Assembly (NCBI RefSeq): GCF_030013595.1
Contig: NZ_CP122768.1
DNA: 64,000 nucleotides
Strand: one strand, 5' to 3'
From: Escherichia coli
Lineage (GTDB): Bacteria > Pseudomonadota > Gammaproteobacteria > Enterobacterales > Enterobacteriaceae
The notes under the pieces were generated by a model that was not told the DNA's origin, made no database searches, and worked only from the letters and a program-made list of their open reading frames with translations. Positions 4,201-4,717 of this stretch are shown in pieces (position 1 is the stretch's first letter; each line of letters starts with the position of its first letter). The translations under genes and the position numbers were made by a program.

Positions 4201-4717
4201 GAGTTCCCCGCGCCAGCGGGGATAAACCGCCGCTCGCGCTCGGACTGAAACCAGGCCTTGCGAGTTCCCCGCGCCAGCGGGGATAAACCGGTCGCCAGAA
4301 CATCACACACGGCGGCGCGCTGGAGTTCCCCGCGCCAGCGGGGATAAACCGGTGCACACGTTGTATTTGTGCTGCCTATGCCAGAGTTCCCCGCGCCAGC
4401 GGGGATAAACCGGGCTTTACGCCCAAAAAGGATTGAATGCAGATGAGTTCCCCGCGCCAGCGGGGATAAACCGGGCTTTACGCCCAAAAAGGATTGAATG
4501 CAGATGAGTTCCCCGCGCCAGCGGGGATAAACCGTGCAGGCGGGGAAAAAACGCCGTTTTGTGGCTGAGTTCCCCGCGCCAGCGGGGATAAACCGGCATT
4601 GCTGTCTCAAATAATTAATCCGGGGAAGAGTTCCCCGCGCCAGCGGGGATAAACCGCGTTTAGCTCCGCAATGCTGGATATCACTGATGAGTTCCCCGCG
4701 TCAGCGGGGATAAACCA
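4201..4717 (+). CRISPR. Type I-E CRISPR array, 9 repeats of 29 bp (gagttccccgcgccagcggggataaaccg) and 8 spacers of 32 bp; terminal repeat degenerate
   Basis: Repeats start at 4201, 4262, 4323, 4384, 4445, 4506, 4567, 4628, 4689 with exact 61-bp periodicity; last repeat has C>T at position 13 and G>A at position 29; spacers 4 and 5 identical. Confidence 0.97.

Follow-up and report, generated by a model that had tools for sequence, protein, structure and literature searches.

Spacer acquisition needs Cas proteins, and the orphan array of Escherichia coli BL21-AI is the standard substrate of spacer-acquisition assays. The CRISPR-II locus of E. coli, with the arrays CRISPR2.3 and CRISPR2.2 between ygcE and ygcF (queE), has reportedly been covered in Diez-Villasenor 2010, Touchon & Rocha 2010, and Almendros 2014. 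Cas1 and Cas2 supplied in trans suffice for acquisition by the orphan array of BL21-AI at NC_012947.1 1,002,800-1,003,800 (PMC3384332), and we checked on the sequence that this interval is the queE-ygcE locus. The 60 leader nucleotides beside repeat 1 are needed for spacer integration (Yosef 2012, PMC3384332), and leader 2.3 is conserved in strains without cas-E (Almendros 2014, PMC3903273).

The interval between cysH and iap is the only known I-E cas site of E. coli (PMC3903273; PMC12736100). Almendros 2014 (PMC3903273) reported the arrangements A-I and that the GC-rich IG2-IG3 boundary is a hot spot for IS186. The cas-positive arrangement A occurs in all phylogroups but B2, while in arrangement B cas-E and CRISPR2.1 are deleted between IG6 and IG3 and hok/sok is retained (PMC3903273). 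A hok/sok locus beside cysH was reported in 90% of strains, and in a set of 237 uropathogenic strains the region-C arrays were found only in groups with I-E cas genes (PMC12736100). The cas genes are often lost, and CRISPR may outlive them (PMC2886076).

Here, we analyzed a CRISPR-II array in a 64-kb stretch of E. coli DNA (hereafter the window, numbered from its first letter) and surveyed 5,426 complete E. coli genomes for comparison. We conclude that this orphan array is very probably leftover immune memory in a strain that recently lost cas by recombination.

Structure of the Array and Its Leader

The features of the locus are listed in Table 1. The 29-nt repeat GAGTTCCCCGCGCCAGCGGGGATAAACCG was present in eight mismatch-free copies, starting at 4201, 4262, 4323, 4384, 4445, 4506, 4567, and 4628, and a ninth copy carried two changes, C13T and G29A. 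The repeats were spaced by exactly 61 nt throughout the array, and every spacer (8/8) was 32 nt long. With up to 3 mismatches allowed, no copy of GAGTTCCCCGCGCCAGCGGGGATAAACCG beyond these nine was found in the whole 64 kb, and 100 dinucleotide-preserving shuffles gave 0 matches. The repeat forms a hairpin with a 7-bp stem and a 4-nt loop (-15.1 kcal/mol, z = -3.6), and the changes in the terminal repeat affect the loop and the last base, which leaves the hairpin unaltered. ETEC4068 and HCP5S3_I2 have the identical repeat, and the repeats of K-12 and BL21 differ from it by 1 nt. An Rfam scan of the window at the gathering threshold reported sok alone and no CRISPR-DR family, which is uninformative for the array.

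Spacers 4 and 5 were identical, leaving 7 unique spacers. Because HCP5S3_I2 has that spacer just once, the duplication is best read as a rearrangement between repeats and not as a newly acquired spacer. Spacer 8 is an anchor spacer that is also present in unrelated strains; with 0-1 mismatch, it was found at the leader-distal end in ST2747, FDAARGOS_1282, ECSD228, ETEC4068, HCP5S3_I2, K_EC180, CFSAN018748, and 64A:C. The terminal-repeat variant was identical in ETEC4068, ST2747, HCP5S3_I2, and CFSAN018748. FDAARGOS_1282 is a cas-positive strain. Downstream, the CRISPR2.2 of the relatives consists of two repeats and one spacer, and that of the window has undergone an exact 61-bp deletion, leaving a hybrid of the 5' part of repeat 1 and the 3' end of repeat 2.

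The GC content of the leader region was 31% compared to 60% in the array. The last ~210 nt before repeat 1 were identical in HCP5S3_I2 and ETEC4068, showed ~90% identity to the CRISPR-II leader of K-12, and contained blocks conserved with both variants of the CRISPR-I leader. Moreover, the repeat-proximal 60 nt matched the BL21 leader at 56/60 positions. From this conservation and from the degenerate repeat that closes the array, we inferred that the leader lies on the queE side and that the plus strand is the transcribed one. A weak sigma-70-like candidate site was seen at 4159-4186, with a 9/12 match to the consensus, and sites of this kind were no more frequent there than expected by chance; transcription of the array is presumed from the literature.

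A preliminary description of this DNA, made from the sequence, had proposed a type I-E array adjoining queE with an exact 61-bp period and a degenerate terminal repeat, which the repeat search and the shuffles confirmed. Its count of 9 repeats and 8 spacers also held, while the identity of spacers 4 and 5 had been missed. That the leader is AT-rich and faces queE, as it also stated, agrees with the GC content, the leader conservation, and the position of the degenerate repeat.

Table 1. Features of the CRISPR-II locus and of the cysH-iap region in the window.
Feature	Position	Strand	Evidence or remark
queE (ygcF), flanking core gene	3191..3862	+	TIGR04322, 369 bits
CRISPR2.3 leader	3863..4200	+	AT-rich 338-nt queE-array intergenic region; conserved core ~3990-4200
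Type I-E CRISPR array, E. coli CRISPR-II (CRISPR2.3)	4201..4717	+	9 repeats, 8 spacers of 32 nt, 7 unique
Spacer 1, leader-proximal, youngest	4230..4261	+	Protospacer in lambdoid/Stx-prophage small-terminase (DUF1441) gene
Duplicated spacer-repeat unit	4413..4505	+	Spacer 4 (4413-4444), repeat, spacer 5 (4474-4505); spacer 4 = spacer 5
Anchor (oldest) spacer 8 and degenerate terminal repeat	4657..4717	+	Terminal repeat at 4689-4717
CRISPR2.2 remnant	5188..5249	+	Partial repeat fragment 5190-5200 and single hybrid repeat 5221-5249
ygcE, FGGY-family kinase, flanking core gene	5295..6773	-	Homology and homologous-locus annotation
Putative recombination tract with cas-less allele	20400..27000 (approximate bounds)	.	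cysH 3' half, hok/sok, iap, cysD, cysN
hok/sok (hokX/sokX) toxin-antitoxin locus beside cysH	21208..21502	+	sok Rfam RF01794, 112 bits; intact hok ORF 21350-21502, 50 aa
IS186, 1,338 bp, in hok terminator hairpin	21524..22861	-	IS4-family transposase, perfect 23-bp terminal inverted repeats
cas-less junction	22872..22977	.	22872-22918 hok-downstream / cas3-upstream sequence; 22919-22962 44-bp junction segment; 22963 onward iap 3' flank

Targets of the Spacers

The 7 unique spacers were searched against 50,697 phage and 72,556 plasmid records. Spacer 1 matched VT1-Sakai and Stx2 phages, with 27/29 of the aligned positions and 28/32 over the full length (28/32 for VT1-Sakai), and directly upstream of the protospacer there was a 5'-AAG PAM, which is the canonical I-E PAM. 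In addition, a 29/31 match to spacer 1 was found in the prophages of ~400 complete E. coli genomes. For spacers 2-8, no target at E ≤ 1 was found in the 50,697 phage and 72,556 plasmid records, and the six unique spacers besides spacer 1 had no match outside arrays in the phage, plasmid, and E. coli genome collections. The search of phages and plasmids that the preliminary description had suggested thus yielded a target for spacer 1 and none for the other six unique spacers. The sole multi-spacer "plasmid" match was to a 4.9-Mb chromosome that had been filed in PLSDB by mistake.

Against the cas-E1 and cas-E2 operons and the remaining window, the spacers gave nothing beyond chance, the best match being 16 nt at 87%. 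Their matches in the 5,426 genomes were confined to arrays and the prophage terminase, with none on a cas gene. Anti-cas or self-targeting spacers were therefore rejected, as none was found in the cas operons, the window, or the 5,426-genome search.

Strains Sharing Spacers With the Window

No complete genome with the same array was found. The nearest genome was that of HCP5S3_I2 (pig, UK), which showed 99.93% identity over 5219-21524 and 99.96% over 22861-27462, ~21 kb in all, and had the same cas-less junction as the window. All the differences between the arrays of the two were repeat-mediated: unit 4 was duplicated, s1-s2 were lost in HCP5S3_I2, and CRISPR2.2 had collapsed by 61 bp in the window. 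Among the 5,426 complete genomes, s4, s6, and s7 occurred only in HCP5S3_I2 and the near-duplicate LCP30S3_I5. The strain 7CC had the cas-less junction of the window and carried a different 2-spacer array.

As shown in Table 2, spacers were also shared with strains that carry cas genes, which was the outcome of the comparison with other E. coli arrays at this locus suggested previously. Spacer 1 was common to the window, ETEC4068, K_EC180, and CFSAN018748, and these three pig-associated strains had the gene order hok-cas3-casA...cas2-CRISPR1-iap. An extra leader-proximal spacer, a, was present only in relatives with cas genes. The sharing was polarized, with s8 widespread at the distal end and the differences at the leader end, and from these arrays the ancestral spacer order would be (a) s1 s2 b s3 s4 s6 s7 s8. 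The s1-s8 set links the strain with HCP5S3_I2, porcine ETEC, and O139:H1 strains in a pig-associated lineage and may serve as a typing marker.

Table 2. Spacer order in the window and in strains sharing its spacers (leader first).
Strain	cas genes	Spacers
Window	cas-negative	s1 s2 s3 s4 s4 s6 s7 s8
HCP5S3_I2	cas-negative	s3 s4 s6 s7 s8
K_EC180	cas-positive	a s1 s2 b s3 s8
ETEC4068	cas-positive	a s1 s2 b s8
CFSAN018748	cas operon with cas3 frameshifted	a s1 s8
64A:C		c d e s2 b s3 s8

The cas Site Between cysH and iap

The window was collinear with K-12 MG1655 from eno to past cysN at ~97% identity, and the single exception was the CRISPR1 array of K-12 with cas2...cas3, ~9.7 kb, which was missing from the window. 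NCBIfam models identified cysJ, cysI, cysH, an IS4-family transposase, iap, cysD, and cysN at 16.7-26.6 kb. A tblastn search of the 64-kb window with the eight Cas proteins of K-12 found no cas genes (best E = 0.05). The cysH-iap cas site thus lies inside the window, ~17 kb from the array, and is empty of cas and CRISPR1 (CRISPR2.1).

The end of cysH is at 21085, and the next locus, hok/sok, cannot be taken for a replacement of cas; this idea was rejected because the cas-positive relatives have hok/sok beside cysH too, and a Hok/Gef gene was annotated at the same place in cas-positive and cas-negative relatives. IS186 was flanked by an intact 10-bp target-site duplication, GGGTAAAACC, at 21514-21523 and 22862-22871, and the target that was duplicated comprises the loop of the hok terminator hairpin together with its 3' arm. 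Beyond the right end of IS186, 58 bp (22861-22918) continued the hok terminator and the spacer upstream of cas3 exactly as in the cas-positive ETEC4068, and the deletion junction was located ~60-100 bp right of IS186. With IS186 removed, the junction (a 269-nt query) was found at a coverage of at least 80% in 1,124 of the 5,426 complete E. coli genomes, and it was 100% identical in HCP5S3_I2, which has no IS186 there. An IS186-mediated cas deletion of the BL21 style was rejected in view of the intact duplication, the flanks that are contiguous in cas-positive strains, and the IS-free junction in HCP5S3_I2. IS186 is a later, simple, and independent insertion.

The earlier statement that the window has no cas genes was borne out by these results. 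The claim that hok and IS186 occupy the usual cas site has to be corrected, since hok/sok is a normal resident and IS186 a simple insertion beside a separate junction.

Probable Loss of the cas Operon

The window was compared with the cas-positive ETEC4068 and K_EC180 along its length. Between ~8 and ~20.4 kb, 0-2 differences per kb were counted. The density climbed to 16-25 per kb within 20.4-21.5 kb, where the second (3') half of cysH and hok/sok lie, was 5-16 per kb over iap-cysD-cysN (23-26.5 kb), and dropped to ~0 beyond 27 kb. Moreover, the queE flank was 100% identical to that of ETEC4068 over 1,439 nt. This short diverged tract on the cas site, with near-identity on either side, indicates that a cas-positive allele was replaced by a common cas-less allele via homologous recombination. 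The direction of the change, a loss, is indicated by parsimony, since three spacer-sharing relatives carry cas and two are cas-negative, and by the fact that acquisition requires Cas. A recent loss of cas had been offered as one explanation in the preliminary description, and the cas-positive spacer-sharing relatives and the sharply bounded tract back that reading.

The same mosaic could be read in the opposite way, with a lineage that was always cas-less and a queE-side array that was imported from a cas-positive donor and never functional here. The region from 5 to 21 kb is indeed mosaic, being nearly identical to CFSAN018748 at 5-10 kb and to K_EC180 and ETEC4068 at 8-20 kb, and Almendros 2014 concluded that different strains have recombined at their CRISPR loci. 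However, the diverged segment is short (~6.6 kb), is centered on the cas site, and has near-identity to cas-positive strains on both sides, which places the import at the cas site rather than at the array; three spacer-sharing relatives also carry cas-E1 (with cas3 frameshifted in CFSAN018748). An import of the array is therefore very improbable, and replacement of the cas allele remains the preferred reading.

The divergence from HCP5S3_I2 and, outside the tract, from the cas-positive relatives was ~6e-4 per site, and at this level repeats 1-8 (232 nt) should have accumulated ~0.1 substitutions since cas was lost. The perfect repeats are thus what neutrality predicts, and the retained role that they had been taken to suggest is not needed. 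This bears on the idea that the orphan array is under selection for a cas-independent or "anti-cas" role, as a means of destroying an incoming cas operon or as a regulatory RNA. The perfect repeats 1-8 and the conserved leader would fit such a role, and anti-CRISPR spacers were proposed for the I-F orphan arrays of E. coli (Touchon & Rocha 2010, PMC2886076). But the spacers do not match cas-E1 or cas-E2 beyond chance, and units are freely lost or duplicated among the closest relatives, as in HCP5S3_I2 without s1-s2 and in 7CC with its different array. Selection of this kind is likewise very improbable.

That a cas-E operon elsewhere in the genome, on the chromosome or a plasmid, serves the array in trans is scarcely credible: the cas genes on which CRISPR-II normally depends in trans lie ~17 kb from it, so that distance is no obstacle, and the visible sequence covers 64 kb of the genome, but the only known I-E cas site lies in the window and is empty, cas-E1 DNA (2,789 of 5,426 complete genomes) and cas-E2 DNA (1,223 of them) occurred on 0 plasmids and at no more than 2 places per genome, and 50/50 sampled matches of these searches were chromosomal and annotated as a cas operon. 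The genome is therefore unlikely to have a second I-E operon outside the window.

With loss of cas by recombination as the preferred reading, the array would have grown in a cas-positive lineage by the addition of spacers at the leader end, taken from mobile DNA beside an AAG PAM, and its oldest, "anchor" spacer would be one common species-wide. A segment of ~6-7 kb from cysH to cysN would then have been swapped, recently, for a widespread cas-less allele (arrangement B), and IS186 would have entered the GC-rich hok terminator afterward on its own. After the loss, the array may have changed only by recombination between repeats, which duplicated unit 4, removed a unit known from relatives, and collapsed CRISPR2.2. 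The cas-positive and cas-negative relatives, ~6e-4 per site apart, are a natural pair for studying the effects of cas loss.

Present State of the Array

In a cell without Cas6e, Cascade, Cas3, and Cas1-Cas2, the array would at most be transcribed from its leader, with no processing, interference, or acquisition. It is probably still competent in cis and could be used again if I-E Cas proteins were supplied; such a return of function is expected because the leader and the repeats are intact, as with the orphan array of BL21-AI. The first repeat differs from that of BL21 at one position, which was shown to tolerate change (Yosef 2012, PMC3384332).

An improbable extension of this view is that the presence and absence of cas-E form a recombination-driven switch at cysH-iap, with CRISPR-II persisting as a standby memory. 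If this were true, recombination over the same ~6.6-kb route could restore cas and instantly re-arm the spacers, for example spacer 1 against lambdoid/Stx prophages, and the orphan CRISPR-II would be kept at the level of the lineage by episodic selection instead of being in pure decay.

Comparison With Known CRISPR-Cas Loci of E. coli

The array corresponds to the CRISPR-II locus of E. coli in its flanking genes, 29-nt repeat, 32-nt spacers, leader 2.3, terminal repeat, and anchor spacer, and in the position of CRISPR2.2 ~0.5 kb downstream. Compared with other CRISPR-II loci, the window has of its own the strain-specific spacers, the duplicated unit, and a CRISPR2.2 reduced to one hybrid repeat.

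Strains of E. coli B (BL21, BL21-AI, and REL606) likewise have an orphan array at the queE-ygcE locus in a cas-less background. The BL21 array, too, is nearly perfect in its repeats, with 14 repeats of which 12/13 non-terminal ones are identical. The repeat variant is GTG in BL21 and GAG in the window. IS186 lies in the hok terminator at the same left position in BL21(DE3) and the window. However, the right end of the BL21 element abuts residual spacers of CRISPR2.1 (CRISPR1), which points to an IS-associated cas deletion resembling arrangement G, whereas the window has a clean and different junction.

The cas site of the window resembles arrangement B in that hok/sok and the ~58 bp after it meet the iap flank directly and both cas and repeats are absent; the match was made on the text of Almendros 2014, and the correspondence to IG3 and IG6 is our reading of it. 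It differs from a plain arrangement B in the added IS186 at the IG2-IG3 hot spot and in the multi-spacer CRISPR2.3. The I-F "anti-cas" arrays CRISPR3 and CRISPR4.1 are also orphans in cas-less E. coli, but their repeat type and locus are different, and no spacer of the window targets cas. Roughly 1,400 of the 5,426 complete genomes were cas-E-negative. Judging from the 237 uropathogenic strains of PMC12736100, orphan CRISPR-II arrays appear to be a minority state, though one amply documented for B strains.

All of the following are already known in E. coli: the locus with its repeat, leader, and anchor spacer; the CRISPR2.2 neighbor, the cas-less junction, and the IS186 hot spot; and the orphan state and usability in trans of such arrays. 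This is a real but ordinary locus, of small significance outside strain typing. The strain is distinguished by its spacer set, its duplicated unit, a collapsed CRISPR2.2, and the combination of arrangement B and IS186 with a multi-spacer CRISPR-II. After the loss of cas, arrays drift through deletion and duplication mediated by their repeats, not through point mutation, which is a known pattern. The locus exemplifies the wider pattern known from E. coli, in which cas is lost or exchanged through recombination and insertion sequences and the arrays outlive it.

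Recombination at the cas Site

When the window was compared with ETEC4068 and K_EC180, two cas-positive relatives that share its spacers and are otherwise near-identical to it, a sharply bounded recombination tract was found at the cas site. Differences from both strains amounted to 16-25 per kb inside the tract and 0-2 per kb beyond its bounds. Within these lie the 3' half of cysH, hok/sok, iap, cysD, and cysN. The annotated frameshift of cas3 in CFSAN018748, another spacer-sharing relative, is a further, independent path to the loss of I-E function within the same strain group.

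Positions of the features described (window coordinates unless stated otherwise)
Feature	Position	Strand	Remark
ygcG (TPM-domain protein)	2025-2942	-	internal stop codon
CRISPR2.2 remnant	5188-5249		mini-array reduced to one hybrid repeat
Recombination tract	~20400-27000		
hok	21350-21502		
IS186	21524-22861		1,338 bp
24-nt tandem repeat CTCAGCAACCGCAAATTCAGCCAA	32036-32105		2.9 copies, within a 379-aa ORF at the nlpD position
Variable rpoS-mutS region	34105-36732		MarR-type regulator and non-oxidative hydroxyarylic acid decarboxylase subunits B and C, based on the annotation of strain 7CC
cas3	19156-21574 (CFSAN018748 record)		annotated as frameshifted

CRISPR Arrays and Spacer Matches

CRISPR2.2, the mini-array near the main array, consists of two degenerate repeats and one spacer in K-12, BL21, HCP5S3_I2 (the nearest genome, which lacks cas), and others, whereas in the window an exact 61-bp deletion left the single hybrid repeat. 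An 11-nt partial repeat fragment, GGGATAAACCG, lies at 5190-5200, 20 nt upstream of the hybrid repeat, and was present in all strains examined. A 143-aa ORF across the main array (4179-4610, - strand) is not a gene but arises artefactually from the GC-rich repeats and their regular spacing.

The sole multi-spacer "plasmid" match was not a plasmid target. NZ_CP134663.1 in the PLSDB plasmid collection, filed as "plasmid unnamed1", is the 4.9-Mb chromosome of E. coli strain 64A:C from a gull, and the match was its chromosomal CRISPR-II array, which carries s2, s3, and s8 (spacers counted from the leader). The "CRISPR array I" of BL21-AI (Yosef et al., 2012; NC_012947.1, 1002908-1003730) lies between queE and ygcE, a site named CRISPR-II or CRISPR2.3 in other nomenclatures, and this difference in names should be kept in mind when papers are compared.

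Comparison With Other Strains

The stop codon in ygcG leaves ORFs of 152 and 141 aa. In ETEC4068, HCP5S3_I2, K_EC180, and CFSAN018748 the gene is annotated as the same pseudogene, unlike in K-12 and in 7CC, a strain with the window's cas-less junction and a different two-spacer array. The tandem repeat at the nlpD position is presumably the known Gln/Pro-rich linker repeat. The rpoS-mutS region of K-12, in contrast to that of the window, is without the MarR-type regulator and the decarboxylase subunits.

IS186 is inserted 21 bp after the hok stop codon, within the terminator hairpin, and may have inactivated or deregulated the hok locus. The element occupies the identical position in BL21, REL606, and 7CC. 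K-12 likewise has a 1,338-bp IS186 just 3' of hokC/gef, an insertion believed to disrupt the fold-back-inhibition element (PMC3562002).
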